A DNA stretch of 64,000 nucleotides from Candidatus Latescibacterota bacterium. GTDB lineage: Bacteria > Latescibacterota > UBA2968. Of the stretch, positions 26,461 to 48,800 are shown piece by piece; positions within the stretch are counted from its first letter, which is position 1, and the number at the start of each line of letters is the position of its first letter. The notes below the pieces were generated by a model. The model searched no databases. It was given only the letters and a program-made list of their open reading frames with translations, and was not told the origin of the DNA. The DNA lies in assembly GCA_965214925.1 (NCBI GenBank), contig OZ244028.1, positions 3,710,058-3,774,057 of the forward strand, given 5' to 3'. Made by a program: the position numbers and the translations under genes.

Positions 26461-26543
26461 AACGACCTCGTAAATGGCTGTAAGCGACCAGTTTTTCCAC
26501 GCCCTTCCACCGGCCGGGCAGCGGATCTCCAATCGCGTGTTTT

Positions 26544-26633
<90 letters not shown>

Positions 26634-26657
26634 AAAATGGCTATAAGTGTTTGTTTT

Positions 26658-26747
<90 letters not shown>

Positions 26748-27192: not shown

Positions 27193-27681
27193 GCCTGTCA
27201 AGTCATCCCCTTGCACGCCCACTCCCCAAGTGTGAGAGAACCGCGCCGATTGCAAAAAAAATATACGGGTTTCCCCACACAGAGTCAACCACTCAATCAG
27301 CAACGCGACGAGTTTTTGCGACCCCTTCAACGGCCCAAGTTCCCAGTCCTCATTCCTTCGGAGATCGCATCAAAATCCGAGCGCGAAGCATCTGACTTGT
27401 CCCGATGCGTTTCACTTGCACGGTCTTGCTATCCTGACACGTAGGTCGGATTGTGCATTTGCAATACCTCGCCGAGAGCGATAATTGGCTGCCCGCATCT
27501 GTCCGCTAGGCAGGCGCCAGCTCCTCAAAATTGCAGTGCCAGGGCGTATCTCGTGCCATCGCGATATGCCCCCTCCGAACGCGCCGCCGATAACAACGGC
27601 CAACCATCGCCGCAAGTTTATACAGACTCTTTTTGGCGCACATGCGTACGCACGCGCCTGTGCGTCTATTCGTCCATTCGC

Positions 27682-29264: not shown

Positions 29265-29927
29265 TAGGTTAAGTCAATAAACTTTTTTGAAGAATCACTC
29301 ATCTAACCTGTTGATTTCAAAGAACCTCTACACCAAAAAACTGTCCGAAGTATTGAAACACAAACACGTTGATTTCAAGGAGTCAAATCGTGAAGTCAAT
29401 TTCGGACATGATTAACGAACTCACGACACTGTATCACTACAGCATCAAATCTTTGGGAAGTGAACTCGGAGTTTCTACCTCTACCCAGTAATTTCTGGTT
29501 AGGCTTTTGCAGAGAGGAGACAGCGAGGTCACAGAAGGGTTGCTCAAAGGCAATTTCCATGAAAGGTTAGAGTTGTCAGAGAAAAATTCTACCCTTTCAA
29601 AGGAGACCTGCCCATACTATCTCTCAGGAAAAAGAAAATGTATGGCCTCAAGAAACGCCAACATTTTCTGCCCTGCTTTCGCCTTTAGAAGCTCAATTGC
29701 CCCATCTCACCCCGTTGGAATCGGGAGCAATAAACCGCTGACTTGCACATCAAACAAACGTCAATCGGTTTTTCTGTTGCCGTTTTTTATTTTTCGGCTT
29801 TTCTTTGCCTTCTGCCGCTCCGCTTTTCGCCCCCCCCATACCTTTCGCCTTTTGTCTGTGTCTATTGGTGTTAATACTCGCTTCTCACTTCTCGCTTCTC
29901 GCCTCTCCCCGATTTCAAGGACGTATC

Positions 29928-33616: not shown

Positions 33617-33726
33617 GGGGTCTTTCTTCTTTCTTCTGAGCAATATGTCTCTCTATACCACTCATTTTTTTTTCGCGTATCACGCCTGAAACGATTCTGT
33701 CAATACCCCTCCGCCACAAGACAAAA

Positions 33727-33765
33727 GCCCGATGGATCAGTTATCCACCGGGCTTATTATTTTTT
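33727..33765 (+). terminator. rho-independent terminator
   Basis: 'gcccgatgg' ... 'ccaccgggc' stem followed by a T-rich run (ttattatttttt). Confidence 0.6.
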
Positions 33766-33814: not shown

Positions 33815-34840
33815 TTATTGACCCCATTCCCTCGTCAAGTAATTGGATGACGGACTCGCATTGATGTTCAAGAGATCGCGGATTTCTTTCGCAAGCTCAA
33901 TTGCTTTGCCGCCTCGTGTATTATCGGTAACTACGAACCGCGCTCCAGTGGCTTTAACGTACTCAATGGTTCCTTCAAAGTCAGCGTGATTCGAAAGTGC
34001 TACGGCAAAGGCCCGTTTCGAATATTCTGTTACAGGTTCATCACTGCGGGTAAAGTATGCGCTGAGTGTGATCTGGGTTGAATTACCCATGTCGGTAGGT
34101 TCGCTATCACCTGTGCTATAGACTCTTATCAACCGATTTTCGTTGACTAACTGCTTCCCGTCAAGAGAGTCGGCATCCACCAATGAGCCAATGGTGTAGC
34201 CGAAATTTTTATAGATATTTATTTCCTTGCAGAGTCGTGCGCTAGCGATGATTGGGCAGTCTATCTCGACGGAGATCAATTGAAGCGCTCGCTGGATTGT
34301 GCCTCGATGAGCCTTGATATATACAGACCCATGTACCAATCTTTGATTGATCAGGGTTATCAGACGTTCTTCGCATTCTCCTTGTGAGAATCGACGGACG
34401 CTACTTGGCGATCCGTATGTTCCATCAACTACGAGACCATCAACCTTGATTACTTCGTCGAGGGGCCATTGGAAATCGCCGGAGTAGCCCAGGCGCGTGC
34501 CATTGGATAGTTCTACGAGAACTTGCACGGCACCTAACATATGTCCGCTTGGTACCAGATATACCTTCGAGGTGCCAATTTTATGCCATTCTCCCTTGTC
34601 AAGACTCTTGATGTTGGAGCGATAGGGCAGTTCTGCATTGTGCTCGCAAATGAGAAGTTGACGAGTCGGCTCGCTCATAATAATGTCTTGTATGCCTTTA
34701 CTGGAATCAAACCCGCTCATATGATCTGAGTGGATGTGTGTCTGCACTCGCGCCTTGGCATTGCTTAGAAAGCCATCGCAGCTTATGTCATCTCCCAGCG
34801 AAATGGCTCCTGAAGCATTTACGTCTATCGGATACTTCAT
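33815..34840 (-). CDS. metallo-beta-lactamase fold nuclease, compact beta-CASP type
   Basis: 'THIHSDH' (HxHxDH), 'VPSGHMLGA', 'GYSGDF', 'LVVDGTYG' and 'ALSNHADF' occur in the order typical of the beta-CASP (RNase J/CPSF73/SNM1) family. 4-nt ATGA overlap with the upstream gene. Confidence 0.75.
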   Translation of the reverse strand: MKYPIDVNASGAISLGDDISCDGFLSNAKARVQTHIHSDHMSGFDSSKGIQDIIMSEPTRQLLICEHNAELPYRSNIKSLDKGEWHKIGTSKVYLVPSGHMLGAVQVLVELSNGTRLGYSGDFQWPLDEVIKVDGLVVDGTYGSPSSVRRFSQGECEERLITLINQRLVHGSVYIKAHRGTIQRALQLISVEIDCPIIASARLCKEINIYKNFGYTIGSLVDADSLDGKQLVNENRLIRVYSTGDSEPTDMGNSTQITLSAYFTRSDEPVTEYSKRAFAVALSNHADFEGTIEYVKATGARFVVTDNTRGGKAIELAKEIRDLLNINASPSSNYLTREWGQ

Positions 34841-35541
34841 GCATAGCTCCCACGCACGTCTATTGCAGCATTGATATCCGTCTCTAGTTGGTCTGGTTCC
34901 ACATCAAGGAGTTTTGCCAAATCGTGGTTGGAGATAATCGTAAAGTTGTTGGGGCCGAGTCGACTAGTCGCCGGATAATTAAAAGGGAGTATCTTGTTCA
35001 TCGTTTGATCCATCAGTTCATCGCGCTCCTGCTGTGTGAGCGTTGTCAAGTACTGCTTCGCCTCGTTGTTAATAATTGCTCCAGCAAAAAGGTATCGAGT
35101 CTCGACCTGTGGTCGTAGTTTCAAGATATCAGCGATACAGTCGTGGACTGACTTTCGGGAACGCTTGGCTATCTGAACCAACTGTACTACCTCTTTCCAA
35201 GTGAGTCTGTGGCGGAGTATCGCCTCTGCCGCTTTGATCTGATCTGCCGGCTTTAGCGGTGCCAACTCAGCAAGCGTTGAGAATGCTATGGATGCACCTG
35301 TGGTTCCTCGCCAATCAGATAAGTGCTGGATATCGGGGGCAAGCCTGACGAGTTTCAGAAAGGTCGATATCTGAGTCGTGCCTACCTGCAACGCTTCGGC
35401 ACATTCTTTATGCAGGGTTCCAGCCGTAACTGCCTTGTTGAGCAATTGGGCAACCTCCAGTGGCGACAGAACGCGCTCACTTCGATGGGTACCAACGGAC
35501 AGGATGAGGTCCCTGTATTCGTCAGTTGAAAGTCCTTTCAT
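34837..35541 (-). CDS. ParB-like HTH protein lacking the ParB/Srx N-domain
   Basis: 'LSPLEVAQLLNKAV...CAEALQVGTTQISTFLKLVRLAPDIQHL' resembles the ParB HTH/middle domain. ATGA overlaps on both sides. Confidence 0.6.
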   Translation of the reverse strand: MKGLSTDEYRDLILSVGTHRSERVLSPLEVAQLLNKAVTAGTLHKECAEALQVGTTQISTFLKLVRLAPDIQHLSDWRGTTGASIAFSTLAELAPLKPADQIKAAEAILRHRLTWKEVVQLVQIAKRSRKSVHDCIADILKLRPQVETRYLFAGAIINNEAKQYLTTLTQQERDELMDQTMNKILPFNYPATSRLGPNNFTIISNHDLAKLLDVEPDQLETDINAAIDVRGSYA

Positions 35542-36368
35542 GAAGCAGGTTCCTTCCAGAAGTCATTGATATACAGCCCGTCTTGGATGAGCCTTCCGGC
35601 CGCGTCATCACTGTTTGTTCCCTCGGATTGGGCGTATTGTCCTAATGCGGTATGCACTTCCGAGGTCAGTGTGACCACAAGTTGAGTAATACGGCCTCCC
35701 GTCTTTGCCGTTTCAATCACATCATCTGCGGGCGTAGTCGGATCTTTTTTTCGTTCGTCTAAAATTTTCTTTTGCTGTGCTCCAGACATTGGGGCCATCT
35801 CTTTGGCGAACATGACCGCTTCTTCTATGTTGATGTCTCCACTACTACTTGCGGCCTGTTGGGCGCGTAGGGCAGTCGGTAGTGGCACACTACTGTCATC
35901 TACCAAAACTTGTAGTTGGGGGACTAACTGATCATACTTCACATACTGGCTCACTTTCGGGTAGGATAATCCAGTTTGCTCTACCACTGCTTTTATGGAG
36001 CCGTAGTGCTTGTAGAGCCATGTGCAAACATCAATGAGGTCAGAAGAGTTGAGGTCCAGTCGCACTAAATTTTCGGTAACGGACAGCACTTTTGCTGTGA
36101 GTTCGTCCACAGACTCATCCAATATAGCGGCCAGGATTGTCTCTGTTTCGAGGTGTACGTGGGCCATGAACCGTCTCTGCCCGGTAACAATCTCGTACTT
36201 GCCTTCCAGGTCGCTTTCGCAGACCACGATCGGTTCGAGAAGTCCCACTTTCTGAATGCTGGCGGCTAATTCATCAATCTCCTTATTCACATTGCGTGTT
36301 CGTGCCTGCGCTTTTCCTATGGTGAGATTTTGGAGAGGTATCTCCCGTACTTCCTTGATGTGGGCCAT
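35538..36368 (-). CDS. ParB/Srx N-terminal domain protein with HTH and RHH-like C-terminus
   Basis: 'IPLQNLTIGKAQARTR...LAASIQKVGLLEPIVV...YEIVTGQRRFMAH' is the ParB box region. The C-terminal 'ITQLVVTLTSEVHTALGQYAQSEG' is RHH-like. The start is set at the ATG preceded by an AAGGAG SD; the ORF extends to 36407. Confidence 0.75.
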   Translation of the reverse strand: MAHIKEVREIPLQNLTIGKAQARTRNVNKEIDELAASIQKVGLLEPIVVCESDLEGKYEIVTGQRRFMAHVHLETETILAAILDESVDELTAKVLSVTENLVRLDLNSSDLIDVCTWLYKHYGSIKAVVEQTGLSYPKVSQYVKYDQLVPQLQVLVDDSSVPLPTALRAQQAASSSGDINIEEAVMFAKEMAPMSGAQQKKILDERKKDPTTPADDVIETAKTGGRITQLVVTLTSEVHTALGQYAQSEGTNSDDAAGRLIQDGLYINDFWKEPAS

Positions 36369-36432
36369 TTTATATTCTCCTTTTGACTGTTGAGGTTCGA
36401 AACTCAATTCGTCTGCAAAATAACAATTTCAA

Positions 36433-36510
36433 CTACAAATGGCAAATCGCACATCTCTCGGTTTCGTCAATCATGGGCAAGGACCCAAGACAGATGTGTT
36501 TGGTCTTTCC
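36433..36510 (-). pseudogene. remnant of the 3' end of a second sspD/dndC-like (PP-loop) gene
   Basis: Translates as 'GKTKHICLGSLPMIDETERCAICHL*', compared with the intact SspD-like C-terminus 'GKTLDDIANQPLRDLPVIDETEGCAICHL*'. The 48-nt core 36434-36481 matches 42029-42076 at 43/48 positions. A TAA stop lies immediately upstream in frame. Confidence 0.8.
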
Positions 36511-36568
36511 TTAGCCATCTATCAACTTCCTTTCTTGAAATAGGTTCGACTCCCTCTTATACCTCCTG

Positions 36569-37024
36569 TTATCGCAATAACTCATCCAAAGCGTCAGAAA
36601 GATTCCAGATTGGTTCCAGGTCGTCATCGCGTAGCATTTCTACGATGTAGGGAACGCCCGCTGCTGCCAGACCATTGGCAATGGTCATCATGCGCCGTGG
36701 TTCACCTACGATTTCCACATTGTCCTCAACAGCGATAGCAACTAGCATCACTGCCTGAATTCGCCAACTGTCCCGGTCAAAGATCGAGCCTTCAATGAAC
36801 TTGAAGGTTTTCTGCCTGGCTAGATCAATCGGCCTGAGTTGCTTTCGCGCTGCGACTGATAGTCCGACAAACCAGAGATCAACCATGCGTGGAAACGGAC
36901 ATTGGTCAATGCTGGTAGTACCGCCCCTTGTCTGAGTCTGGCAATAACGGTCATAAGCGTCACGTTGATCAATAGGTGCAATCAGATCAATGCCGGCGAA
37001 TGGATTATGATATCGCTGTGTCAC
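36569..37024 (-). CDS. 151-aa hypothetical protein, possibly dnd-system-associated protein 4 / SspF-like
   Basis: Lies 10 nt downstream of the DndD-like ATPase gene. The helical protein ('MLVAIAVEDNVEIVGEPRRMMTIANGLAAAGVPYIVEML') is assigned by context and memory only. Confidence 0.45.
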   Translation of the reverse strand: MTQRYHNPFAGIDLIAPIDQRDAYDRYCQTQTRGGTTSIDQCPFPRMVDLWFVGLSVAARKQLRPIDLARQKTFKFIEGSIFDRDSWRIQAVMLVAIAVEDNVEIVGEPRRMMTIANGLAAAGVPYIVEMLRDDDLEPIWNLSDALDELLR

Positions 37025-37034
37025 TGCTGCCCTC

Positions 37035-39176
37035 CTAAAATGTCTGTTCCATTTCTGATTCTAAATCCATCCGTCGCTGGCACACTGTACATTCTCTGCG
37101 ATGATTGCACTCGCACCACAATACTGTCCGCTCTTTCATCTGTGGGTCATTGATCAGCATGCGGGGATAGTGCGCCGGATTTGTCAGCGTGATCACTCGT
37201 CCTGCTTCAGTATCCAGAATGTCCTCGCAGTCTGCGATCTCAGAGCGCGTGAGAAACAGGACAAGTTGCGAACTTTCGCGGATAGCGGTCTTGAGCACGG
37301 ACCGCTTGACATAGCCACTCATCATTCCAAGCGGTGTATCAATCACATTGGGGGCTTCAACCTCACTCACCTTAGTCAATGCGAGAATAAAGGCGAGGGT
37401 CAGTGCCCGCCGGGAAGCACCATTCAAGTCACGGTCAGGATTCAGTGTCCGATTATCCGGTCCATAGACCAAAATATCGAATTCTTTGCTAATTTCCGCC
37501 TTTTGAATGATTGCGTTCTGTTCAGGGTCGGCACCGATCATTTCCAGGAAGATTGCATTCATTCGCTCACTGACCTTAGCCAATTCTTCATTCGTAATCC
37601 GATTATAGGAATTTTCCAGAACTTGCTTTACGTCCTGCGTTACTTCAAGTTGCGCCAATATGCGAGTCCCCTTCTTCTGTTCTCGAAGAAGGTTATTGCG
37701 GGTTGCGCTCAGAGAGATTTGTTCTTTTTTCAGCCCTTCGAGCTGGGTTTCGTATCGCACTTGGTTAGCGTAGAAGCGGTCACGCTGATTTGCATAGCGT
37801 CGCTTAGTATCACAAAGGCCCTGAATGTCAATATCCGGTATATCGCCAAGTTTTACTTCAAGAGCCTTGCGTTTCTTTCCCTGATCTACGAGCCTAGAAT
37901 CTTGCTCGTCGCGGTGTGCAAAGATCTTGGCATATTCGGCAAGCCAGCGTTCTTCATCGGTGACCTGATCCGGCTGAAATGACCGGGATCCATAATAAAG
38001 GTCGGTGACTATTCTTTTTGACTCATCCTCCTTCCGACTCTCATCGATCAGGCACTGGATATGGTTTCTTCGTCGTTTGCCATCACCATCGTTTGGAGCC
38101 AGCGACTCACCGCAAATACAAGTAGTACCCTTGAGGCGTTCTTCAAGGACGGGAATTGTCTCGTTGGGTATCTTGCCTTGGTCGTACAGTCTGTTCAACT
38201 CTCCGAGACTTTTTTTAACTACGGGGGCGAGGAGGTCACGTGAAAGCGAAAGGCTGCGAAACAATTTTGAATGCGCTTTGCCGGCGGCCTCTCTCTGTTC
38301 CTTGATCTGCTTTAGCTGTGCTTCGGTTTGTTCGATATCGCGCTTGAGTGCTTCCCGGTCGCCCTTGATCAAGGCTGCATCGATCTTCTTTTGAACCTCG
38401 GCGAGCTTTTCATCGTACGCTGAAAACTGTTCCTTCGCATCATCTCTTCTTTTTTCCAGGTCTGCCGAGACTTCATTAATCTGATCCAACCGAATCGCGA
38501 TCTGGGTAAGTTTCTCATCGGCCTCAATATTTTTTGCCGCCTTATTGACCTCAGAAGCTGTCTTTTTTATATGCCCTAGTGCATCCTCAATCACGCCAAG
38601 CCCCAATAAAGACCGGATCGCCTTTTCAACGCGCTCGCGCTTGGTTCTGACGTTCACATCTGCTTCGATGAAGCTCAGCGCACGGTCCCCGTCGGTAAAA
38701 AATACTTCACGAAGCTCGGGTGGGAGTTCATCATTAATCAGTGATTCAGGCCAGCCAATAGGCTCACTGCCGGTGTCTGTTAATTCGAACAGTTTTACTG
38801 TCGATGGAGTGTGATCCCATTTATCGCCGTTTAATGTCTCAAATGCTGATCGTATAATGAGATATTGTTGTCTGGTTTCAAATGAGCCTCTTGGGCCTCC
38901 AAGCTTCGTTATCTCAAATTTGACCTGTACGGATATTGGAACCCTACTGCTGTCCGCTACATCCCAATCGATCGGGTGGAGGCGGTAATCTTGGCGTTTA
39001 CCGGGCAAGGCATCATCGCCATAGAGTGCCCATTGCAGTCCATTCAGAATGGTGGTCTTTCCGGTTTCATTCTCGGCCCGGATGACTGTTAGTTTCTTCG
39101 AAGTATCTGTTGAGAAGTCCAAATCCAGAGGGCGCAAAAGGCGAAAATTTTCAAATTTGGCGCTGATCAGTTTCAT
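37035..39176 (-). CDS. DndD-like SMC/Rad50-type ATPase (SspG-like?)
   Basis: N-terminal 'FENFRLLRPLDLDF...VIRAENETGKTTILNGLQWALYG', a long coiled-coil middle, and C-terminal 'LNGASRRALTLAFILAL...APNVIDTPLGMMSG' (compare DndD 'VIDTPLGRLD'). The terminal cluster is CxC...CxxC. Confidence 0.75.
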   Translation of the reverse strand: MKLISAKFENFRLLRPLDLDFSTDTSKKLTVIRAENETGKTTILNGLQWALYGDDALPGKRQDYRLHPIDWDVADSSRVPISVQVKFEITKLGGPRGSFETRQQYLIIRSAFETLNGDKWDHTPSTVKLFELTDTGSEPIGWPESLINDELPPELREVFFTDGDRALSFIEADVNVRTKRERVEKAIRSLLGLGVIEDALGHIKKTASEVNKAAKNIEADEKLTQIAIRLDQINEVSADLEKRRDDAKEQFSAYDEKLAEVQKKIDAALIKGDREALKRDIEQTEAQLKQIKEQREAAGKAHSKLFRSLSLSRDLLAPVVKKSLGELNRLYDQGKIPNETIPVLEERLKGTTCICGESLAPNDGDGKRRRNHIQCLIDESRKEDESKRIVTDLYYGSRSFQPDQVTDEERWLAEYAKIFAHRDEQDSRLVDQGKKRKALEVKLGDIPDIDIQGLCDTKRRYANQRDRFYANQVRYETQLEGLKKEQISLSATRNNLLREQKKGTRILAQLEVTQDVKQVLENSYNRITNEELAKVSERMNAIFLEMIGADPEQNAIIQKAEISKEFDILVYGPDNRTLNPDRDLNGASRRALTLAFILALTKVSEVEAPNVIDTPLGMMSGYVKRSVLKTAIRESSQLVLFLTRSEIADCEDILDTEAGRVITLTNPAHYPRMLINDPQMKERTVLWCECNHRRECTVCQRRMDLESEMEQTF

Positions 39177-39418
39177 CGGATACCTCCCTCGGCCATTTTG
39201 GTTTGACCTCGCTTCTCCGCGAGAAAATGGCCTGCCGCATTACACTTGTCATTTATCTGTTTTTGAATATTCGTTCTCGATACGCGATGCGCTCTTTCAT
39301 ACTGAAGGATGTCGGAGATTACTTCGATCATCTCCTCTTGGTATCCGTCGCATCTCTCCTCAACCGTTTTGCACTCATCGAGAATGATGCTGATAATTTT
39401 TCGTTCGTTGAGCGGCAT
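39173..39418 (-). CDS. 81-aa hypothetical protein
   Basis: ATGA overlap with the DndD-like gene and 12 nt after the PLD-helicase gene. Helical and charged, with no recognised family. Confidence 0.5.
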   Translation of the reverse strand: MPLNERKIISIILDECKTVEERCDGYQEEMIEVISDILQYERAHRVSRTNIQKQINDKCNAAGHFLAEKRGQTKMAEGGIR

Positions 39419-39430
39419 TGTCTCCCTCCC

Positions 39431-41671
39431 TTAGAAAACTGCGTTGACGAGTTCATGAATGAGACTCAGCGGGCCGTCAGCCCTGCCGGCATTTCGCGCA
39501 AGGCTGGCAAATTCCTGTATCCGCAAGAGTTCCGATCGGATTAGGGTGCGGGCCTCACCGTCGATATTACCCATATCCGGCGGCAATGCGATGAAGTCGT
39601 GAATCTCGCTATGCGTTTTGCCAATTTCGCGGCAAGTGCGGAGAAGTCGTCCTCGACGCTGTACCCATTGCCGTTCCACTGTGGTACTTGCGAGGATGAA
39701 AGCCTTTTCAATCTGCGGAATGTTCACGCCTTCGTCAAGGACGCGCTTTGCGGTAAGGACGCGATGTGTGCCTTCTTGAAAGGACTGAATAATACGCGCC
39801 ATCTTATCGCGGTTCGCTGTTTCTACGTGAGTAAGTTGGTGAAAAAGTACTCCGTGTGTATTCAATAACGCATTGACGGCGTTGAGTTGCTGTGGTGCCT
39901 TATCAGAGGCATAAATCAACGTATGGCGAAGCGTCCGAAGGTCTTCGCGTATCAAGGCTTTCTCTAGAGCAGCAATTTTATTTTTAGCATTTTCTAAGAG
40001 TGCCCGACGGTCTCTGAGCAACTTGGTGAGATACTCATCGGGTTCCCCGTTCTCCTGACGCCAAGCATTCGCCTTGATCTTCGCGGTGAGGGCATACCAC
40101 TCATCCATCTCATCCTGCGTGAGTTTCACTGGATGGACGTAGTAATCGTATTCAACGAGACATCGCCCGATTGCTTCCTTGAGTGTGAATTGGAAAACAA
40201 CCGGGCCAAAAAACGAAAACAGGATCTCTGTTCCCTGTTCATCATATTGGCGAATAGGGGTTGCAGATAGACCAAGCCTGTAATCGAAGAAAGAGGGCAG
40301 ATCAGTTATGAATCCCTCACTTCCCAAATTGTGTACTTCATCCGCAATGAGCAAGGTATCACAGTCAAATTTTTCAACTTCAGCCTTAAACGCGCTATTG
40401 CAAAGTGTACGGTGCGAAACGACAACGGCCTCAATGTTGCTCATTCCATTTCGGAACCGCCGTTTGATCCTATTGAGTTCATGTGCCCGTCCCCTTGCGC
40501 CATTGGCCGCGGTCAGATTAACCGCTTTGAGTCCAAAGGGCGCGATCTCATCACACCATTGCTGAATGAGGGGGACATAGGGAGCCGCAACGACGATAAG
40601 AAGAGGTTTATACACATCATATAGCCTATGAGCGCAAATCATGGCAGTGATCGTCTTGCCCGACCCGGTCGCCATTTCCAAGACGCCCCGATAACCGGCT
40701 TCACACCAAGCCTTGACTGCTTTGCCTTGGTGCTCAAATGGTCCATCCTCAAATTGAAGGTCTGGTGGTATCGCAAATGACCCGTAGAGTTTAGGAGATT
40801 CTTCCACAACTGAAAATTCAGTTGCCCGCCTATAGAGCGCGCGCAAATCTGTCTCTGTTGGCGGGATGTCAGAGCAGTAGGTCTGCAATAGCTGTCTCTG
40901 GATAGCCTGTGGCATCCCAACGACGATGCAGCGATCATCTTCATTTTCCCAAAGCTGTCCGAATTGGTCACAAAACTTTTCGGTGATGTAGCGTTGGTTG
41001 GGATCCTCCCACGATTTGGAAATGGAGATTTGCTCAATATTCTTCCGAATACCGGCATAAGTCATGTTGCTTGACCCGTGCGCTGCTATTACATCACCAT
41101 CTCCACTAAAGAGCCAAACCTTTGGATGGAAAAGCGCGTCTTTCATCAAGGCAATTTTGATCTTGATGCGCCCACTACGCAGCAACCAAGAAAGACATTT
41201 CAGCGTGTGTTTCTGAACGAGGTCTTCAGTGACAACAATATCTTCTAAAGCGGCATTGGCGATATCTTCAGGAGAGATCACGCCTTTTTCGATTGCGGCC
41301 TTGTCTTCGGCTCGGAGAAGGGGACTGATGATCAAGCGAAAACTTTCTTGTGAGCAGTTTACAAAAGTAGCCAAGCCTGGGGCTAGTGACGCCAAAACCT
41401 CACTGGAAAAGAAGCCCACCATGCAATCAACTTGGGCAGCGGCCTGAAAGCATGGAATAAGCACCTCTTCTGTCACCGGATCATCAGGTAGTATGTAGAG
41501 TGGCCTTGTATCGGACACTGACCGCAGAGTCCTGCCATTGATCTCTGCCACCTTCAAATCCCTATCAGGTGCTACTTGGGCGACTGATCTGCCAAAGTGC
41601 TTTCGCTTGGGGCCAACTTTTCGCACTTGCAAGGTTCGCAAGTCATACTCTGGACGCAGTTCATCCTGCAT
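39431..41671 (-). CDS. PLD-family nuclease + SF2 (ResIII/DEAH) helicase fusion, PT-system restriction-enzyme-like (SspH-like?)
   Basis: PLD motif 'FHPKVWLF...AHGSSNMT'. Helicase motifs 'MATGSGKTITA', 'LIADEVHNLGS', 'GLSATP' and 'QRRGRLLR'. The start is set at the ATG at 41671, 7 nt after the brnT stop; the open frame extends to 41758. Confidence 0.8.
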   Translation of the reverse strand: MQDELRPEYDLRTLQVRKVGPKRKHFGRSVAQVAPDRDLKVAEINGRTLRSVSDTRPLYILPDDPVTEEVLIPCFQAAAQVDCMVGFFSSEVLASLAPGLATFVNCSQESFRLIISPLLRAEDKAAIEKGVISPEDIANAALEDIVVTEDLVQKHTLKCLSWLLRSGRIKIKIALMKDALFHPKVWLFSGDGDVIAAHGSSNMTYAGIRKNIEQISISKSWEDPNQRYITEKFCDQFGQLWENEDDRCIVVGMPQAIQRQLLQTYCSDIPPTETDLRALYRRATEFSVVEESPKLYGSFAIPPDLQFEDGPFEHQGKAVKAWCEAGYRGVLEMATGSGKTITAMICAHRLYDVYKPLLIVVAAPYVPLIQQWCDEIAPFGLKAVNLTAANGARGRAHELNRIKRRFRNGMSNIEAVVVSHRTLCNSAFKAEVEKFDCDTLLIADEVHNLGSEGFITDLPSFFDYRLGLSATPIRQYDEQGTEILFSFFGPVVFQFTLKEAIGRCLVEYDYYVHPVKLTQDEMDEWYALTAKIKANAWRQENGEPDEYLTKLLRDRRALLENAKNKIAALEKALIREDLRTLRHTLIYASDKAPQQLNAVNALLNTHGVLFHQLTHVETANRDKMARIIQSFQEGTHRVLTAKRVLDEGVNIPQIEKAFILASTTVERQWVQRRGRLLRTCREIGKTHSEIHDFIALPPDMGNIDGEARTLIRSELLRIQEFASLARNAGRADGPLSLIHELVNAVF

Positions 41672-41678
41672 TGTTGTC

Positions 41679-42005
41679 TCATCCTTCCTCATACCTGCCT
41701 GCCAGAGTCGCGCGACAGGCAGGGGTTTGTCTCTCTCTGCGGGTTGTTTCTCTTGCACTAATCAAACGAATCGCATCTCCCCGCTCGGTGTATGATACGA
41801 TTAACAAACGACCGCGCTTTGATTGTCCGATGATAATATACCGATGCTCATTATACGAGTGATCGGGGTCATAAAAATCAATATAGAGCGTGTCCTTGAA
41901 AACAGCACTTGCTTCGTCGAATGACACACCGTGCTTTGACAGATTCGCCTCTGCTTTGTTTTTATCCCATGTAAATGCCATAGGCATAACGTCTGATAAA
42001 TCCAA
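41679..42005 (-). CDS. brnT: BrnT-family (DUF497) toxin
   Basis: 'FTWDKNKAEANLSKHGVSFDEASAVFKD...DHSYNEHRYIIIG...LLIVSYTERGDAIRLISARETTRRER' fits the BrnT family pattern. Confidence 0.8.
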   Translation of the reverse strand: MDLSDVMPMAFTWDKNKAEANLSKHGVSFDEASAVFKDTLYIDFYDPDHSYNEHRYIIIGQSKRGRLLIVSYTERGDAIRLISARETTRRERQTPACRATLAGRYEEG

Positions 42006-42027
42006 AACCCTAATTTACACAGAGAGG

Positions 42028-42855
42028 TTACAAATGGCAAATCGCGCATCCTTCGGTCTCGTCAATCACGGGCAAGTCTCTAAGGGGTTGATTTGCAATG
42101 TCGTCTAAGGTCTTCCCATCCACCCAAGTAAATTGCTTCCCATTTTTCGCCTGCTCGTATTCCTTTGCTTTCTCAAACAAATCGGGATGTTCTTCTTTCA
42201 ACCGCTGCCATTCCCCAACCTGCTGGTAAAAGCAAAAATAGCATCCCGACCGCGACCGCCATTTGTAGTACTCCGGCAGACCAAGCCCTGACTCCTCCAA
42301 AATCTGCACAACATCCGCCAAGCCAAGTCCATCGTCCTTAAACGGATAAACGGGAATGATATTGGGCTGCTGAGAAATCGAGGGTGGTTTTTTTGCAATA
42401 TATCCATCTCGGTCTTCATCGTCGCGGATGCCGATATAGCTATACGCCCGGCTGTTGCCAACGTAATCTTCAAACGGTTCGATTTTCAACACGCGCGTAC
42501 ACCACCGCGATCTCGGGCTGGGCAAATAGCCGCCGTATATCTCATTCAAATACATATCAAACGGAGTGCGCCCGGGCTTTTTCTCCACCCCTAAACCGTC
42601 GAGCGCGTTTAGGCGACGAACAGTAACGCCAAGCAGTGCCTCTAAGCACTCCAAATACGCATACGTTTCATCTAATTCACATCCGGTGTCACAGAAGACA
42701 TACTCCACAGGGATTTGGGGATAGTTCTGCCGCATATAGATGGCCAAGGCGGCTGAGTCTTTCCCCCCTGAAACACTGACGATATGCCGAATGTCAGTTG
42801 CTGAGCCTGTCGAAACATCAGACAGATTGTTCAAGGCATCTTGTATTGTGGCCAT
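42028..42855 (-). CDS. sspD: PAPS-reductase/PP-loop ATP pyrophosphatase, SspD-like
   Basis: PP-loop 'VSVSGGKDSAALAIYM' and a C-terminal Cys cluster 'CYFCF...CAICHL'. The start is at the ATG 1 nt after the sspC stop; the ORF extends to 42924. Confidence 0.8.
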   Translation of the reverse strand: MATIQDALNNLSDVSTGSATDIRHIVSVSGGKDSAALAIYMRQNYPQIPVEYVFCDTGCELDETYAYLECLEALLGVTVRRLNALDGLGVEKKPGRTPFDMYLNEIYGGYLPSPRSRWCTRVLKIEPFEDYVGNSRAYSYIGIRDDEDRDGYIAKKPPSISQQPNIIPVYPFKDDGLGLADVVQILEESGLGLPEYYKWRSRSGCYFCFYQQVGEWQRLKEEHPDLFEKAKEYEQAKNGKQFTWVDGKTLDDIANQPLRDLPVIDETEGCAICHL

Positions 42856-42856
42856 G

Positions 42857-45800: not shown

Positions 45801-46336
45801 CGATCACAGCCTGCGGCGCGCGCCTTGTCCCGAACCACACTGAGCAACGCAATTGCCTGCTCAATTGTCTCACACGGCATTGACGCAATAGTACGAGCTT
45901 GCCGACCGAGTTTCATACGCCGCATTCCCTTCAGCGCGGCATCTTTCAGACTTTCGCTCAAATTCCGACAATAGTCCTGCAATACCAGCACAAGTCCTGT
46001 GTCTTTATTCTTGCGGCGTTCTTTGGAAAATTTGCCCAAATCTGGACTGACAACCCGTAGCCTGTCTTCGACCACAGTGAGTGTCTCATCAGCATTGGGG
46101 CGATTTTCAATCATAAGCGACAAATAGGTCGCCGTAATTGACTTTCCCGTTCCATAAGGCGCGACAACAAAAAATGCCCTGTCTCGTTCAAAACCGAGCA
46201 GGGATTTTATGAGAGGGACACTTTTAGCCGTGGGTTGGTAGTGTGCAATCCGATCCGGATAATCTGCATCGTATTGAATGTTGATGGAACGCAGAAATAC
46301 TTCAGCATCGAACTCAACTATTTTCTTACGCGGCAT
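42857..46336 (-). CDS. sspC: large P-loop ATPase, SspC-like
   Basis: 1159 aa with Walker A 'VVAPYGTGKSITA' and a probable Walker B 'RIAILWDEFG'. It lies between the DUF4007-like and PP-loop genes, with overlapping stop and start codons. Confidence 0.7.
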   Translation of the reverse strand: MPRKKIVEFDAEVFLRSINIQYDADYPDRIAHYQPTAKSVPLIKSLLGFERDRAFFVVAPYGTGKSITATYLSLMIENRPNADETLTVVEDRLRVVSPDLGKFSKERRKNKDTGLVLVLQDYCRNLSESLKDAALKGMRRMKLGRQARTIASMPCETIEQAIALLSVVRDKARAAGCDRIAILWDEFGRHIESLISEGRSVALSEIQLLAEFVSRSQAIPVTLGLLLHQELLQYAGSMPQSVRSEWRKIEGRFQTIQYIDDSKEIYRLISEVVSAQNRMPATCLRATHRQEGDDQIGLFSDLTIYSELPAKQAMSYAKWCKQLGLFSDFTLPELESLLRRAYPLEPTTLYLLPRLSGRVAQNERTLFSFLNFMDFQHLVRPDHLYEYFSPEMRTDTAVGGTYRQWLETQSALSKLDDDNDLAATALRTASLLGFGVGGERSRTSRDLLLFALRGYRQPQQAEAVVDQLIDRKLLLHRKHSDEVSVWHGTDVDLRGRLEEEKSRQRRTFDFMTFLADEASPPVWRPVTYNSDFHIRRFLLGAYRSLEKLDEYLGANISHNIPVGCDGICIYVIVETAEELREAERVVYNFDRSSLAAKHVRDERVILAIPKAPIPLFETALEVWCLIQMQEDDKLVESDPHVLSEIQQMTDDARSHLQKLLDRLILPSGDGPRYFFRNNELPVKSAYDLRNELSKIMSKIFPHTPKINNEMIVRRKPTPIMVNARKKLLLGILERSGQENLGIEGNSPAASMFRTVLLHTGLYRKDDDACLPRPRRRQGRWRYAMPEEVEDEGLSDVWDKVRAFFTMPSVKPKDIRGFFNELMEPPYGVRAGLLPILFSAGLKAFPSVFSLRYKGRYVSDILPSRIEALCREPEIYEFTVLDLDQTKRAYLRAICERFGGVAQAKSLTTGPVLSEANGNDLIRACYDALENWKMSLPTGALSTRRLTAQTRRFQTALRQQSDPVELLFERIPSALACSIQEQHLLLESLEKCKNELSEVIDGYRKEAIASLLRALSLNWKSKNRDVQEIARHWAFCFPDELSNMLNDSVSKGLLSRVRMPYPSDDKLIDSLSSLLLRKTLNRWDDSSIAAFDREIHSAVRRIEELALSSEFRVSGAMKNGLTHLVQERMKKLYGRLTHIVGAEEARDLFAHILRDNTRKD

Positions 46337-47231
46337 GATGATCTCTCCATTGGATCGCTTCGTAATGATTTCTCAGCCAATCAATGGGTCGTATTCGCGG
46401 AATGCGTATCCTTCGATCCCCGGCGAAACCGAGCACGCGGATATCCTCGTTTAAATTCTTTTTTTCGGCCTTAAGAGCAAGCGCGAATAGCGATTCACTG
46501 GTCAACGCGAATGCCCTGCCGGGTCCGCCTGGGCTCGTTGCTGCCTCTCTCACAGATATATTGACTGTGCCTTGGCCCGTTCGGGCCTCCACAAATGCTT
46601 TGGAGAGGGCATATCCGAGTAAATATGTCGGGACTGCTTTCTCGCCTTGATGCACTTGGTAATATCTCGACGTATGAAAATAACTCATTAAACCGAGCTC
46701 AACAAATGGACATTCAAGTGCTTCTTCTGGATCCTTATGTTCGATTGGAATGTGTCTGGCATAGCTATGCAAAAGGCAAGCAACATCTCGCTCAATAGTC
46801 CTTGGACTGAGCTTTCGATCTTGCTGTAGATAGCGAGATAGCCTGTCTATGCACATAGCCCTTTCAAATCGGGAGTGACTGAAATGATTGAAGAACCACG
46901 TCCAAGTAAAAGCTTGATTTTCGGGATTCACCAGATTGATGTGCAAGGCCCACCAGGTCCCGATTTCTATAAAATAGGGATCGCGATCGTAAATCAGCCT
47001 GCCGAGTTCTGTTACTTCCAATCGGGTCTGACGCCCATTGGCTCGTTTTCGCACGGCCAATCCCGTGACCTCCAACCAGTGGCGAATAGAACGGGACATG
47101 TTTTTGCCAACGCCGAGCCAATCCGCAACATATTCATCGAATAACAACTCGGGGTCTTCAATCAGCAACTTCAGCCCTTTGTGAAGCCACCCTTCTCGAA
47201 TTGCAAATGTTTCGTGTCCACTGAATTTCAT
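46326..47231 (-). CDS. sspB: DUF4007-like protein, SspB-like
   Basis: N-terminus 'MKFSGHETFAIREGWLHKGLKLL' is the hallmark start of DUF4007 proteins. ATGA overlap with the desulfurase gene. Confidence 0.75.
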   Translation of the reverse strand: MKFSGHETFAIREGWLHKGLKLLIEDPELLFDEYVADWLGVGKNMSRSIRHWLEVTGLAVRKRANGRQTRLEVTELGRLIYDRDPYFIEIGTWWALHINLVNPENQAFTWTWFFNHFSHSRFERAMCIDRLSRYLQQDRKLSPRTIERDVACLLHSYARHIPIEHKDPEEALECPFVELGLMSYFHTSRYYQVHQGEKAVPTYLLGYALSKAFVEARTGQGTVNISVREAATSPGGPGRAFALTSESLFALALKAEKKNLNEDIRVLGFAGDRRIRIPRIRPIDWLRNHYEAIQWRDHHAA

Positions 47232-48418
47232 GATCTCACCCCTGCCAAAGGCGTCAATCGCCGTCGCCTAAATCGGCGCAATTGTCCACACAAACGCTCG
47301 ATATGTGCAACCGTCTCATCGACCTCTTCAATCGCATTGAACTCCGAAAAGCTAAATCGGATACTCGAGTACGCCTCTGCTTCAGAAAGGCCCATCGCAC
47401 GCAACACATACGACGGTTCGGGCCGCTGATTGGTGCATGCCGAACTCTGCGAACACCGAATCCCTTCCTGATCCAACCGAGCCACGAGTGCCTGACCATC
47501 CACATCCCGAAACAGCAAATTTGTCGTATTGCAAATCCGCAACTCGGGATCGCCATTGATCGCCACATCGGGCACGCGATCCATAACGGACTGCTCAAAA
47601 TAATCCCGCAGCGAAGCCATAAGCACCTGCACATCCGCAAGCCGATTCAATCGCACCTGCGCCGCGGTGCCCATGCCAACAATGCCGGGCACATTCTCTG
47701 TTCCCGGCCGCAATCCACCTTCTTGCCCTCCGCCCCAAAGCAGTGGAAACAACCCTTTGGACGCTTTCACATAGAGCGCGCCAACGCCTTGGGGCCCGTG
47801 GAATTTATGCGCGGTAAACGTCAAAAAGGCAACGGGCAGTTCGTCTAAAGAAATGGACAACTTGCCAACGGCCTGCGCGGCATCGGTATGGCATAACACA
47901 CCTCGGGCTTGGCAAAGCCGAGCAATCCGCTCAATGGGCAAAATCGCGCCCGTTTCGTTATTGACCCACTGCACAGAAACCAGATCCGTGTCTGGCGTAA
48001 CGGCTTCGGCCAGCAAGCCCCAACTCAACTGCCCATTCCGATCCACGGGAACAGATACGACCTCAACGCCTTTTTCACCGAGATAGTTACACATCTTCAC
48101 AATGGACGAGTGTTCTACGGTCGTTGTCACAATGCGAACCCGTTTTTCCGTTTGGGCGCGTTGAACAACAGAATTGAAGACCGTGTTATTGGCTTCGGTC
48201 CCACTCCCCGTAAACACAATCTGATCAGATGTAGCACCGACCAACTTTGCAACGGCGTCACGCGCTGCAACCATGGCGTCGCGCACGCGGTCGCCAGCCA
48301 AATGCGCGCTCGACGGATTGCCAAACCCCTCGTCCAATACGCGCATCATCGCGTCGCGCACCTCGGGCAACGGTTGCGTCGTCGCATTATTGTCCAAATA
48401 CATTTCGCGCATCATCAC
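47228..48418 (-). CDS. sspA: cysteine desulfurase (class V aminotransferase), SspA/DndA-like
   Basis: 'LDNNATTQP', 'FTGSGTEANN', PLP-Lys 'FTAHKFHGPQGVGALY' and the catalytic Cys loop 'SQSSACTN'. Confidence 0.85.
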   Translation of the reverse strand: MMMREMYLDNNATTQPLPEVRDAMMRVLDEGFGNPSSAHLAGDRVRDAMVAARDAVAKLVGATSDQIVFTGSGTEANNTVFNSVVQRAQTEKRVRIVTTTVEHSSIVKMCNYLGEKGVEVVSVPVDRNGQLSWGLLAEAVTPDTDLVSVQWVNNETGAILPIERIARLCQARGVLCHTDAAQAVGKLSISLDELPVAFLTFTAHKFHGPQGVGALYVKASKGLFPLLWGGGQEGGLRPGTENVPGIVGMGTAAQVRLNRLADVQVLMASLRDYFEQSVMDRVPDVAINGDPELRICNTTNLLFRDVDGQALVARLDQEGIRCSQSSACTNQRPEPSYVLRAMGLSEAEAYSSIRFSFSEFNAIEEVDETVAHIERLCGQLRRFRRRRLTPLAGVRS

Positions 48419-48430
48419 TCCAAAATTTTG

Positions 48431-48673
48431 CTACATCTCTGTCAGTTTTAACTGATTTGCATTAGCCTGATCAATGGGTTCAATTCGGTTGGCGAAGCGG
48501 CGAATCGCTTCGGCCTCGGCAGATGTAAAGAGAACTTTCCGGCCGCGATACCGATTTCCAGCCGGAACTTTCCCCTCATTCCGCCACCGCCAAAGCGTTT
48601 GGCGCGACACATTCAAATCCCCTATCACTTCGGTTGCTGAATAATAGGTTATACCGTTAATCTGAATCGGCAT
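48431..48673 (-). CDS. MerR/excisionase-type HTH protein
   Basis: 'YYSATEVIGDLNVSRQTLWRWRNEGKVP' is an HTH_17/AlpA-like motif. It lies 12 nt upstream of sspA. The ORF extends to 48694. Confidence 0.7.
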   Translation of the reverse strand: MPIQINGITYYSATEVIGDLNVSRQTLWRWRNEGKVPAGNRYRGRKVLFTSAEAEAIRRFANRIEPIDQANANQLKLTEM

Positions 48674-48730
48674 GTTCGCCTCGCAGCGTTTCAAAGTGTT
48701 GCGTATGTCTCTGTATGTAACATTCGGTTT

Positions 48731-48759
48731 ATCGTAATACGAAAGTCGCCCTCAGTCAA
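48731..48759 (-). promoter_or_regulatory. candidate promoter of the island operon
   Basis: The minus strand reads TTGACT - 17 nt - TACGAT, between the mrcA terminator and the HTH gene. Confidence 0.4.
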
Positions 48760-48767: not shown

Positions 48768-48800
48768 AAAAAAAAAAACGGACGGGTTATACCCATCCGC
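48768..48800 (-). terminator. rho-independent terminator of mrcA
   Basis: The minus strand reads 'gcggatgggtataacccgtccg' followed by T11, 30 nt after the mrcA stop. Confidence 0.8.

Follow-up and report, generated by a model that had tools for sequence, protein, structure and literature searches.

Thirteen minus-strand genes are tightly packed between positions 33815 and 48694 of the window, the 64,000-nucleotide stretch of contig OZ244028.1 from a Candidatus Latescibacterota bacterium that was analysed here, and the block is bounded by terminators on either side (Table 1). All thirteen open reading frames listed in the original prediction are present, confirming its description of the array. 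Between maximal reading frames, from the HTH gene onward, the gaps and overlaps are 12, -4, -11, -68, 22, -80, 12, -4, 10, 161, -4 and -4 nt. Homologues, however, support later starts for SspD (likely M24, at 42855; maximal ORF up to 42924), PbeA (M30, at 41671; up to 41758) and ParB1 (M14, at 36368; up to 36407). With these starts the large overlaps disappear, leaving gaps of 1 and 7 nt, and the spacer ahead of parB1 lengthens to 200 nt, in agreement with the single 200-nt spacer originally reported.

This 15-kb block was probably acquired horizontally. Its GC content is 49.5%, compared with 54.6% in the remaining window, of which it is the lowest 14.9-kb stretch. Twelve of the 13 island genes have a GC3 of 0.44-0.56 and sspA has one of 0.60, against 0.66-0.70 for the UvrD-like, PBP1A and TPP-enzyme genes on the flanks. 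The predicted dip is real, but its size had been overestimated (37-53% against 60-67%): the contrast is about 5 GC points rather than 15-20. In the related island L085, a hairpin homologous to the one at the right edge is located upstream of the island.

Table 1. Genes and other features of the block (all on the minus strand)
Feature	Coordinates	Strand	Evidence or remark
Terminator-like hairpin, 10-bp stem + T10	48778..48800	-	block's left edge; ends upstream PBP1A gene
Sigma-70-like promoter TTGACT-17-TACGAT	48731..48759	-	ahead of HTH gene; consensus match only
HTH_17/MerR-like protein, 87 aa	48431..48694	-	operon head; profile matches
SspA, cysteine desulfurase	47228..48418	-	PADLOC SspA 7.2e-128; Aminotran_5 8.4e-71
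SspB (DUF4007)	46326..47231	-	PADLOC SspB 2.8e-114; DUF4007 5.6e-63
SspC, BrxC-like P-loop ATPase, 1159 aa	42857..46336	-	PADLOC SspC 1.1e-153
SspD, PP-loop PAPS-reductase-family protein	42028..42855	-	PADLOC SspD 4.8e-94; PAPS_reduct 9.7e-11
BrnT-family RNase toxin, 108 aa	41679..42005	-	Pfam BrnT_toxin 4.9e-29
PbeA, HKD (PLD) nuclease + SF2 helicase fusion	39431..41671	-	PADLOC PbeA 7e-197; TIGR04095 1.2e-112; PLDc_2/ResIII/Helicase_C
PbeB, small protein, 81 aa	39173..39418	-	lies between pbeA and pbeC; homologues by tblastn
PbeC, CxC-type (C353-I-C355) coiled-coil ABC ATPase	37035..39176	-	PADLOC PbeC 2.5e-46; DndD 3e-33
PbeD, 151 aa	36569..37024	-	position and size; homologues
sspD 3'-end fossil	36434..36481	-	blastn-short E 1.2e-9
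Promoter-like match in 200-nt spacer ahead of parB1	36417..36445	-	consensus match only
ParB1, ParB/Noc-type	35538..36368	-	ParB_N 3.5e-16; TIGR00180 1.2e-21; PDB Noc 2e-13
ParB2, 234 aa	34837..35541	-	HTH_ParB 4.7e-5; predicted structure
Beta-CASP metallo-beta-lactamase nuclease	33815..34840	-	profile matches; fold
Terminator-like hairpin, 13-bp stem	33725..33755	-	block's right edge; 60 nt past nuclease stop codon

The Ssp writer, BrnT and the PbeABCD module

The HTH protein at the head of the block is likely the operon's regulator, and its gene is kept ahead of sspA in the related loci L085 (85%) and L116 (53-54%). The next four genes were originally read as an SspABCD quartet for phosphorothioation (PT), a reading supported by HMMs (PADLOC 5e-94 to 1e-153), Pfam and catalytic motifs. 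Every motif quoted in that prediction was found: the PLP-lysine motif FTAHKFHG (residue 201) and the catalytic cysteine in SSACTN (residue 325) of SspA, FSGHETFAIREGWLHKG at residue 3 of SspB, the Walker A APYGTGKS at residue 59 of SspC, and SGGKDS at residue 52 of SspD. The 301-aa and 298-aa proteins belong, as proposed, to the DUF4007 and PAPS-reductase families. SspE (DUF262+DUF1524), whose lack had also been noted, is absent among the block's proteins. Since its sequences place it in the Ssp family, which has been characterised experimentally, SspABCD is predicted to place single-strand PT on the host chromosome.

The gene that follows sspD encodes the predicted embedded BrnT toxin. An 82-aa ORF (41801-42049) was rejected as BrnT in favour of the overlapping 108-aa ORF that Pfam matches, and neither the ORF map nor a profile search revealed a separate antitoxin gene after brnT. 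In related Ssp-Pbe loci the gene is partial (L102) or missing (L085). BrnT, an embedded toxin, may act as a back-up abortive effector.

The PLD-helicase protein, the 81-aa ORF, the DndD-like ATPase and the 151-aa ORF had been proposed as an effector module. The proposal stands, and the identity of the module can be sharpened. PbeA contains the motifs H211xK and DEVH473 and a clade-specific N-terminal extension (MQDELRPEYDLR...); its TIGRFAM match, TIGR04095, is the family named 'DNA phosphorothioation system restriction enzyme'. PbeB, for which HMM searches gave no match, has homologues of 38-86% identity in 33 Ssp-Pbe loci (tblastn), and PbeD, with no Pfam match, has homologues of 30-79% identity in 33 loci. 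The four genes correspond to PbeABCD, whose function has been published (PMC6459918, PMC10853773), though only together with double-strand Dnd-type PT: in archaea, DndCDEA-PbeABCD blocks the replication of unmarked DNA (PMC6459918). PbeD is the cognate of DndE, and the PbeC-type CxC ATPases are a sister family of DndD (PMC10853773).

In the window PbeABCD is re-paired with Ssp, and this arrangement recurs in about 30 other genomes. Of 35 close relatives of PbeA, 46-87% identical to it, 30 have an SspD homologue (at least 49% identity) within 10 kb; nearly all of these 30 loci also have SspB and/or SspC, and sspD is mostly directly upstream on the same strand. The genomes with close PbeA relatives beside sspBCD are mostly sponge-symbiont MAGs. 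Synteny between L085 and the window, at 78-85% DNA identity, starts at the HTH gene and extends as far as the pbeD stop codon. We found no description of the Ssp-Pbe pairing in the published literature. The slot after pbeD is occupied by DUF262+SIR2 in L085 and by DUF262+kinase in L102, so that a ParB-superfamily protein with an effector is a recurring theme at that position.

The ParB1-ParB2-nuclease trio

In the window the slot after pbeD holds the second of the two nuclease-containing partner modules originally claimed, on which HMM, structural and comparative evidence agree. ParB1 begins with a CTPase-fold domain that carries the GQRRF and TENLVR boxes and also has an HTH and a C-terminal domain. 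ParB2 had been described as a truncated ParB; it is instead an intact member of a conserved family whose length hardly varies (about 232-240 aa), with a ParB-type DNA-binding domain, no NTPase domain and an extra, unmatched C-terminal alpha/beta domain. Its model (pLDDT 91.7) matches Spo0J/Noc DNA-binding domains in Foldseek. The last protein is a beta-CASP nuclease, as predicted; its HxHxDH motif (residues 35-40) and its active-site residues are invariant. In size and fold it is nearest to SNM1A, Apollo and Artemis (TM ~0.70 and rmsd ~4 Å over 320-350 residues), and among curated families it best matches TIGR04122, a ligase-associated DNA-damage-response exonuclease, at 9.4e-18, which is below cutoff. 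Plasmid, phage and IMG/VR collections contained no relatives of the nuclease, and none of the three proteins matched a PADLOC system model. A ParB2::nuclease fusion protein adjoining a PAPS-reductase gene also exists, in a single case on one short Logan contig that could be a frameshift artefact.

The trio was surveyed in 81 species-level loci, with PT genes counted over 72 and SNF2 over 79, and is complete in 77 of the 81. It is a conserved cassette specifically linked to PT-writing genes elsewhere, which strengthens its original designation as a candidate effector module. Of 72 loci, 61 have a gene for a PT sulfurtransferase, DndC-like or SspD, no more than 10 kb away, mostly as part of one closely packed array of genes on the same strand; a cysteine desulfurase is present in 42 loci, and a divergent PAPS-reductase-like gene lies beside a desulfurase in 2 further ones. 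The partners are DndA-DndC-GmrSD (about 37 loci), DndC with a DndD-like ATPase (17) or SspBCD (8), and the nuclease clades track the type of PT writer. An SNF2 helicase gene precedes the trio in 65 of 79 loci (82%) and is missing here. SspA-SspBCD-SNF2-ParB1-ParB2-nuclease operons (L120, L122, L009, L011) contain the trios most closely related to that of the window. In addition, the spacer before parB1 retains a 48-nt fossil of an sspD 3' end, which ends in LPMIDETERCAICHL and a stop codon; it lies 65 nt before the start of parB1 and matches the end of the resident sspD (42029-42076) at 43 of 48 nt.

Possible roles of the trio

Overall, the evidence supports the original reading of an SspABCD-based defence island with two partner modules. 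The block is probably a horizontally acquired PT defence island in which an Ssp writer is served by two readers, PbeABCD and, as a candidate, the trio, which may be an undescribed reader of the PT mark. SspA would mobilise sulfur from cysteine and SspD would carry out the PP-loop sulfurtransferase step, at sites chosen by SspB (a DNA-binding nickase) and SspC (an ATPase). PbeABCD, with its HKD-nuclease/SF2-helicase, small protein, CxC ABC ATPase and DndE-like protein, would stop the replication of unmarked DNA. For the trio, we infer that it senses PT, forms a complex and acts against viruses: ParB1 as a CTPase-type clamp and ParB2 as a DNA-binding subunit would load on DNA, the NTP switch of ParB1 would be tuned by PT status, and the two would bring the SNM1/Apollo-like nuclease to unmarked DNA. 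The SNF2 translocase may assist in most genomes, and the PbeA helicase may substitute for it here. The PT-tuned switch is proposed on the precedent of SspE (PMC9646914) and DndI (PMC11662687), in which PT stimulates the NTPase of ParB-superfamily domains. Against it, the ParB1 domain is a canonical ParB_N (CTPase) and not of the DUF262 type with demonstrated PT sensing.

The trio, normally with SNF2, could instead be an autonomous defence system that merely shares islands with PT systems and arrived after pbeD by chance. It may work alone, since 9-11 of 72 trio loci have no PT gene within 10 kb, including SNF2-trio loci such as L002, L019, L121 and the IS-flanked L010. The trio is found in none of the 35 other Ssp-Pbe loci and its SNF2 partner is missing here, so that it could have landed by chance in a variable slot, one that holds unrelated cargo in other genomes. 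We nevertheless think this unlikely, because a PT sulfurtransferase gene in 61-63 of 72 loci is far over any island background, the nuclease phylogeny follows the writer type and the window's own copy of the trio carries a fossil sspD end beside it.

The similarity of the nuclease to repair enzymes, both in its best curated match and in its fold, could point to another role, as an accessory (with SNF2) for maintenance, repair or control of PT modification. It might deal with nicks from SspB/DndD-type nickases or with oxidised PT sites, or limit modification in the manner of DndB, a ParB-superfamily protein with that function. The trio accompanies writers even beside another likely restriction nuclease (GmrSD/DndI-like, PbeA), which fits such a role. 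Its occurrence without a writer does not, nor does the absence of ligase or polymerase partners; and the rapid shuffling of modules, the setting in islands and the nearby mobile elements (integrases and IS in L007, L008 and L120) are typical of conflict systems. We regard an accessory role as rather improbable. Least credible is that SNF2, ParB1 and ParB2 serve the sulfurtransferase as an alternative DNA-scanning and nicking apparatus and so belong to a third type of PT writer, with the window's trio a redundant or relic copy. To our knowledge, all characterised PT writers require an ATPase and a DNA-binding or nicking partner, and family HMMs find neither DndD/DndE nor SspB/SspC in the roughly 37 DndA-DndC-GmrSD-SNF2-trio loci, whose DndC scores 335 bits against TIGR03183, above the equivalog cutoff of 290. 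Against this, complete SspBCD and DndC-DndD writers are followed by the cassette too and would have no need of a second scanner, and it is hard to see what a beta-CASP nuclease would contribute to writing.

Comparison with known systems

The island, read as a PT writer with two readers, has parallels in several known systems. It shares with SspABCD-SspE (Xiong 2020; Gao 2022, PMC9646914) the four writer families in the same order, and possibly, through the trio, the logic of a PT-reading ParB-superfamily NTPase coupled to a nuclease. It differs in lacking a DUF262+DUF1524 protein, in having its ParB domain, of the canonical CTPase type, on a separate polypeptide, and in using a beta-CASP rather than an HNH nuclease. 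In SspABCD-SspFGH (PMC8092258) and IscS-DndBCDE-DndI (PMC11662687), likewise, a single PT writer serves several interchangeable or additive restriction modules; but the Walker-A protein SspF, the FtsK-like SspH and the DUF262+HNH protein DndI do not resemble the trio.

The individual proteins have their own relatives. ParB1 shares the N-domain boxes (GxRR, ENLxR) and HTH of the CTP-dependent DNA clamps ParB, Noc and KorB, and ParB2 shares their DNA-binding domain without the NTPase domain. Unlike those clamps, the trio has neither ParA nor a plasmid or phage context, and its operon partner is a nuclease, usually with an SNF2 helicase. The nuclease equals SNM1A, Apollo and Artemis in size and has intact metal-binding motifs, but is only 15-19% identical in sequence and is a bacterial protein whose gene shares an operon with those for the ParB proteins. 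BrnT matches the full-length toxin domain of BrnT/BrnA; here, however, the next reading frame leads straight into PbeA rather than to a brnA gene.

With DndCDEA-PbeABCD (Xiong 2019, PMC6459918), the CxC ABC-ATPase/DndE/HKD-SF2 system of PMC10853773, the block shares four genes in the same order, an HKD+SF2 PbeA, a CxC ATPase PbeC and proteins of similar size (PbeB, 81 aa here and 66 aa there; PbeD, 151 and 152 aa). In contrast to that system, the window's PbeA bears its N-terminal extension, brnT is wedged between sspD and pbeA, and the writer is the single-strand Ssp rather than Dnd.

SspABCD and its pairing with PbeABCD

All 13 of the consecutive minus-strand genes predicted for the block are found in place in the ORF map, and every motif quoted in the original prediction is present in the encoded proteins. 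The four proteins read as the phosphorothioate (PT) writer SspABCD all match their family models, including DUF4007 for SspB (exceeding its 27-bit cutoff) and PAPS_reduct for SspD, the two families on which that assignment had been made to depend. By analogy with characterised relatives, SspABCD would write PT into single strands. The operon is headed by an 87-aa HTH_17 protein, whose position is kept in related islands. The expectation that the block has no SspE-like partner is also borne out: none of the 13 proteins matches GmrSD_N, GmrSD_C or the PADLOC SspE models, and the fusion of a DUF262 (DGQQR) NTPase to a DUF1524 HNH domain is absent from them. Similarly, a trio of Walker-A SspF, SspG and FtsK-like SspH is absent from the block as judged by description, and there is no PADLOC match of those names.

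The first of the two nuclease-bearing partner modules that had been predicted can be identified, from PADLOC matches and gene order, as the known PbeABCD system. PbeA contains one HxK motif (H211xK) and a DEVH box (DEVH473), and the TIGR04095 model that it matches is described as 'DNA phosphorothioation system restriction enzyme'. In PbeC, C353-I-C355 lies mid-protein within the coiled coil, and such a CxC pair characterises the 'CxC ABC ATPase' clade (PMC10853773). In the A-B-C-D order, the ORFs of 81 and 151 aa fall where PbeB and PbeD are expected; they are close in size to the published proteins (PbeB, 66 aa; PbeD, 152 aa; PMC6459918), and 33 related loci conserve both, with identities of 30-86%. 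No HMM or Pfam model, DndE included, matches either of them. PbeD of the published system is a DndE cognate, and an identification of the 151-aa ORF as DndE itself was rejected for want of Pfam support. PbeABCD has been characterised with the DndCDEA writer, where viral DNA replication is halted in a PT-dependent manner (PMC6459918); by analogy, the PbeABCD described here would block replication of unmarked DNA.

A scan of the genome collection with the window PbeA as query returned 36 loci at 46-87% identity, 35 of them usable, from Poribacteria, Latescibacterota, Dehalococcoidia, Caldilineaceae, Acidobacteriota, Gammaproteobacteria and Oleispirillum naphthae Y-M2. An SspD homologue lies within 10 kb of the PbeA relative in 30 of the 35, nearly always with SspB and/or SspC, and the ssp genes are mostly co-directional and directly upstream of pbe, giving an sspBCD-pbeABCD array. 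In L085, a syntenic Latescibacterota MAG, DNA identity to the window is 78-85% over the stretch that begins at the HTH gene and closes with the final codon of pbeD. A sponge-associated Latescibacterota genome is thus the most likely source of the window. The Ssp-Pbe cassettes (L084-L118, also L120) share 60-87% protein identity across at least six phyla and come almost entirely from sponge-associated MAGs, the one cultured carrier being O. naphthae Y-M2 (L104). Such identity across the phyla of sponge-symbiont lineages points to intense inter-phylum exchange of PT immunity in the sponge habitat.

The ParB1-ParB2-nuclease cassette

The second predicted nuclease-bearing module exists as a conserved cassette of ParB1, ParB2 and a beta-CASP nuclease (the trio), which closes the block. 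In ParB1, an HTH accompanies an N-terminal ParB domain that carries the boxes GQRRF and TENLVR (ParB_N, 3.5e-16; TIGR00180, 1e-21). Its matches in the PDB include Noc, ParB and Spo0J, with E-values as low as 2e-13; a reading of its C terminus as RHH found no Pfam support. PADLOC matches for ParB1 are limited to two weak ones, with PD-Lambda-5_A and with a model for type II methyltransferases; ParB2 and the nuclease have none. ParB2 had been described as a truncated ParB, a description that must be given up, since its family is near-uniform at 230-240 aa and the protein is modelled with high confidence (pLDDT 91.7). The model shows a ParB/Noc-type DNA-binding domain from residue 1 to about 145, which is followed by an alpha/beta domain without a structural match, and ParB2 is weakly alignable to the HTH half of ParB1. 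Its relatives number 136 in a word-indexed search and 462 clusters at 50% identity in an exhaustive HMM search (E <=1e-10).

The nuclease family comprises 1,618 clusters, mostly unnamed, with H35, H37, D39, H40, H100, D122, H178 and H285 (HxHxDH, His and Asp motifs) invariant. The nuclease model (pLDDT 87.6) matches CPSF73 in Foldseek at 4.7e-17, and SNM1A, Apollo and Artemis match it with a TM of ~0.70 across the whole chain. These motifs and the fold match identify the protein as a beta-CASP metallo-beta-lactamase (MBL) nuclease. A role of the ParB genes in plasmid partition was rejected: ParABS needs both ParA and ParB on a segregating replicon, whereas ParA is missing from the block, and 72,556 plasmids, 50,697 phages and IMG/VR contain no relative of the nuclease. 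In L123, a PAPS-reductase gene stands after one that encodes a 582-aa fusion of ParB2 and the nuclease. The fusion is seen in one Logan contig of 5.6 kb, where a frameshift artefact is possible, and is weak evidence.

The occurrence of the trio was mapped by tblastn and family HMMs in 81 non-redundant nuclease-anchored loci (one genome per species and a few metagenome contigs), 77 of which hold it complete. An SNF2 helicase core of ~450 aa lies directly upstream in 65 of 79 loci, a DndC-like or SspD gene is present in 61 of 72 and a cysteine desulfurase in 42 of 72; two more loci have a divergent PAPS-reductase-like gene beside a desulfurase. Approximately 37 loci show the context DndA-DndC-GmrSD-SNF2-trio, in which DndC exceeds the TIGR03183 cutoff, GmrSD combines DUF262 with DUF1524 as SspE and DndI do, and neither DndD/DndE nor SspB/SspC is detectable. 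The corresponding seven-gene array (cysteine desulfurase, DndC, GmrSD, SNF2, ParB1, ParB2, nuclease) is widespread, being carried by L004, L013, L037, L043-L049 and L053-L082. At 17 loci DndC and a DndD-like ABC ATPase stand beside the SNF2-trio, and a further arrangement, SspB-SspC-SspD-SNF2-trio, is found at eight.

Clusters in the nuclease tree track the type of writer, and the window falls inside an Ssp-linked cluster. At 66% identity, the nearest relatives of its trio belong to operons of the form SspA-SspBCD-SNF2-ParB1-ParB2-nuclease; one such operon is from a metagenome with the contig prefix 'PetF', presumably a sample of the sponge Petrosia ficiformis. A tblastn search with three SNF2 partners (E 1e-3) finds no SNF2 match elsewhere in the window. 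One other locus, L075 from Terrimicrobiaceae, has a window-like order of PbeABCD, short spacer and trio without SNF2, with proteins only 35-51% identical.

Boundaries, composition and history of the block

When ORFs are taken at their maximal length, there are two large overlaps, of SspC with SspD by 68 nt and of BrnT with PbeA by 80 nt. With starts taken from homologue alignments (SspD M24, PbeA M30, ParB1 M14), the junctions become overlaps of 4-11 nt or gaps of at most 22 nt, in keeping with the tight packing originally described, and the single 200-nt spacer is indeed present, between PbeD and ParB1. Terminator-like hairpins bracket the block. The palindromic terminator 3' of the nuclease gene recurs in the L085 island, where a copy with 86-88% identity precedes the HTH gene, and may be a repeated boundary element.

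The block has a GC content of 49.5%, against 54.6% in the rest of the window, and is its lowest 14.9-kb stretch; the predicted compositional anomaly is thus real, but far milder than the spot counts had indicated. GC3 is 0.44-0.56 in 12 of the 13 genes and 0.60 in SspA, compared to 0.66-0.70 in flanking housekeeping genes. A neighbouring UvrD-family helicase was rejected as an island member, as its PADLOC matches (GajB, RTasHel) are confined to the generic helicase core and its GC3 is host-like; its 500-aa N-terminal region has no Pfam match. Elsewhere in the window, a tRNA-Ala, tRNA-Ser, tRNA-Ser cluster adjoins a MafB19/CMP-deaminase-fold gene, TadA-like in appearance, and no integrase lies in the window between this cluster and the island.

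DNA synteny with L085 and with L102, a second Latescibacterota MAG, stops exactly at the pbeD stop codon and resumes at a Zn-ribbon gene past the nuclease. The cargo in this slot differs between L085, L102 and L103, which makes it a site of effector swapping, and the slot often pairs an effector with a ParB-superfamily protein. Other Poribacteria loci have in common, in this slot, an uncharacterised set of 96-aa, 455-aa and 360-aa proteins. In the pbeD-parB1 spacer of the window, 65 nt before parB1, there is also a 48-nt sspD fossil, the remnant of a 3' end; it reads LPMIDETERCAICHL* and is identical to the end of the resident sspD at 43 of 48 nt (E 1e-9). The window's copy of the trio thus once stood directly after an sspD gene.

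The embedded toxin of the original prediction is confirmed as BrnT. In BrnTA systems the toxin is followed by the antitoxin BrnA, whereas no separate antitoxin ORF lies downstream here. Compared with L085 and L102, full-length brnT is specific to the window; L102 retains the 3' part and L085 none of it. From 7 nt past the brnT stop, a frame without stops runs into PbeA and encodes an N-terminal extension (MQDELRPEYDLR..., MQDELRPEYDLRTLQVRKVG...) that has no Pfam match and is kept in the window, L085 and L102. This peptide, which we take to resemble antitoxin N-termini, may be what is left of an antitoxin, now fused to PbeA; its identification as BrnA itself was rejected, there being no Pfam match even at E 5.

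Features of the block, its surroundings and the comparison loci
Feature	Sequence	Position	Description
SspA	window	HK at residue 204, SSAC at 325	PADLOC 7.2e-128, Aminotran_5 8.4e-71; class-V PLP cysteine desulfurase
SspB	window		PADLOC 2.8e-114, DUF4007 5.6e-63
SspC	window	Walker A APYGTGKS at residue 59	PADLOC 1.1e-153 over residues 13-1104; BrxC-like ATPase
SspD	window	SGGKDS at residue 52	PADLOC 4.8e-94, PAPS_reduct 9.7e-11; PP-loop ATP pyrophosphatase family
PbeA	window		PADLOC 7e-197, TIGR04095 1e-112; HKD endonuclease + SF2 helicase (PLDc_2, ResIII, Helicase_C)
PbeA N-terminal extension	window	41577-41686
PbeC	window		PADLOC 2.5e-46, AAA_23; coiled-coil ABC ATPase, DndD-like
BrnT	window	41679-42005	match 4.9e-29
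sspD 3'-end fossil	window	36434-36481	pbeD-parB1 spacer
Resident sspD end	window	42029-42076
Terminator-like hairpin	window	48800-48778 (minus)	one bracket of block
Terminator-like hairpin	window	33755-33725 (minus)	other bracket of block
Promoter-like matches	window		ahead of HTH gene and within 200-nt spacer
Palindromic terminator	window	33718-33765	3' of nuclease gene
Palindromic terminator copy	L085	2889-2936	upstream of HTH gene
UvrD-family helicase	window	29805-33146	1113 aa
tRNA cluster	window	26011-26747
MafB19/CMP-deaminase-fold gene	window	26758-27330
Slot after pbeD	L085	14993-16883	DUF262+SIR2
Slot after pbeD	L102	14959-17123	DUF262+Ser/Thr kinase
Between sspD and pbeA	L102	7470-9372	GIY-YIG + DndB-family protein
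Slot after pbeD	L103	14988-17285	765-aa GmrSD-like, SspE-sized protein
Seven-gene array	L004	2840-11014
ParB2::nuclease fusion	L123 (P0272)	656-2404

Role of the trio and comparison with known systems

The domain identities, the operon structure, the intact catalytic motifs and the recurrent physical linkage of the trio to PT writers are established. For the role of the trio, we propose that ParB1 and ParB2 would form a DNA-loading, NTP-switched module with PT-dependent behaviour. This module would bring the SNM1-like nuclease to DNA that lacks the mark, and SNF2, or PbeA in the window, would serve as the motor. Rival readings make the trio an autonomous neighbour of the writers beside which it recurs, an accessory in repair or control, or a part of a writer. 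A PT-dependent switch is proposed on the precedent of SspE and DndI, in which a PT-stimulated NTPase of the published ParB-fold domains gates the nuclease. Taking the evidence together, we give slightly less than an even chance to the combined proposal that the (SNF2-)trio is an unrecognised class of PT-reading effector, in which a CTP-switch ParB clamp guides an SNM1-like nuclease, and that SspBCD-PbeABCD is an unreported, widespread pairing.

The components of SspABCD and PbeABCD, and PT-based immunity of the restriction-modification type, are already known. The Ssp-Pbe pairing, and the systematic association of the ParB-ParB-beta-CASP cassette with PT writers, are undescribed in the literature searched, where the pairing and the SNF2/ParB/MBL module receive passing mentions only, although such absence is not proof. 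About 84% of sspBCD clusters have been reported to lack a known restriction partner (PMC8092258), which raises the question of whether most Ssp systems are orphans. Our analysis offers two answers, namely PbeABCD as a habitual partner of Ssp and a trio tied to PT writers of every kind. If the trio reads PT, the idea of ParB-fold PT sensors would extend from DUF262 proteins to canonical CTPase ParB clamps, and SNM1-type nucleases would gain a role in bacterial immunity.

The founding PbeABCD adjoins DndCDEA, whereas that of the window adjoins SspABCD instead; many pbeAC genes without dnd have been reported (PMC6459918). As a PT-reading effector, the trio would be a further type of partner beside DndFGH, DndI, PbeABCD, SspE and SspFGH, one repeatedly combined with SspBCD, DndC-DndD and minimal DndA-DndC writers.
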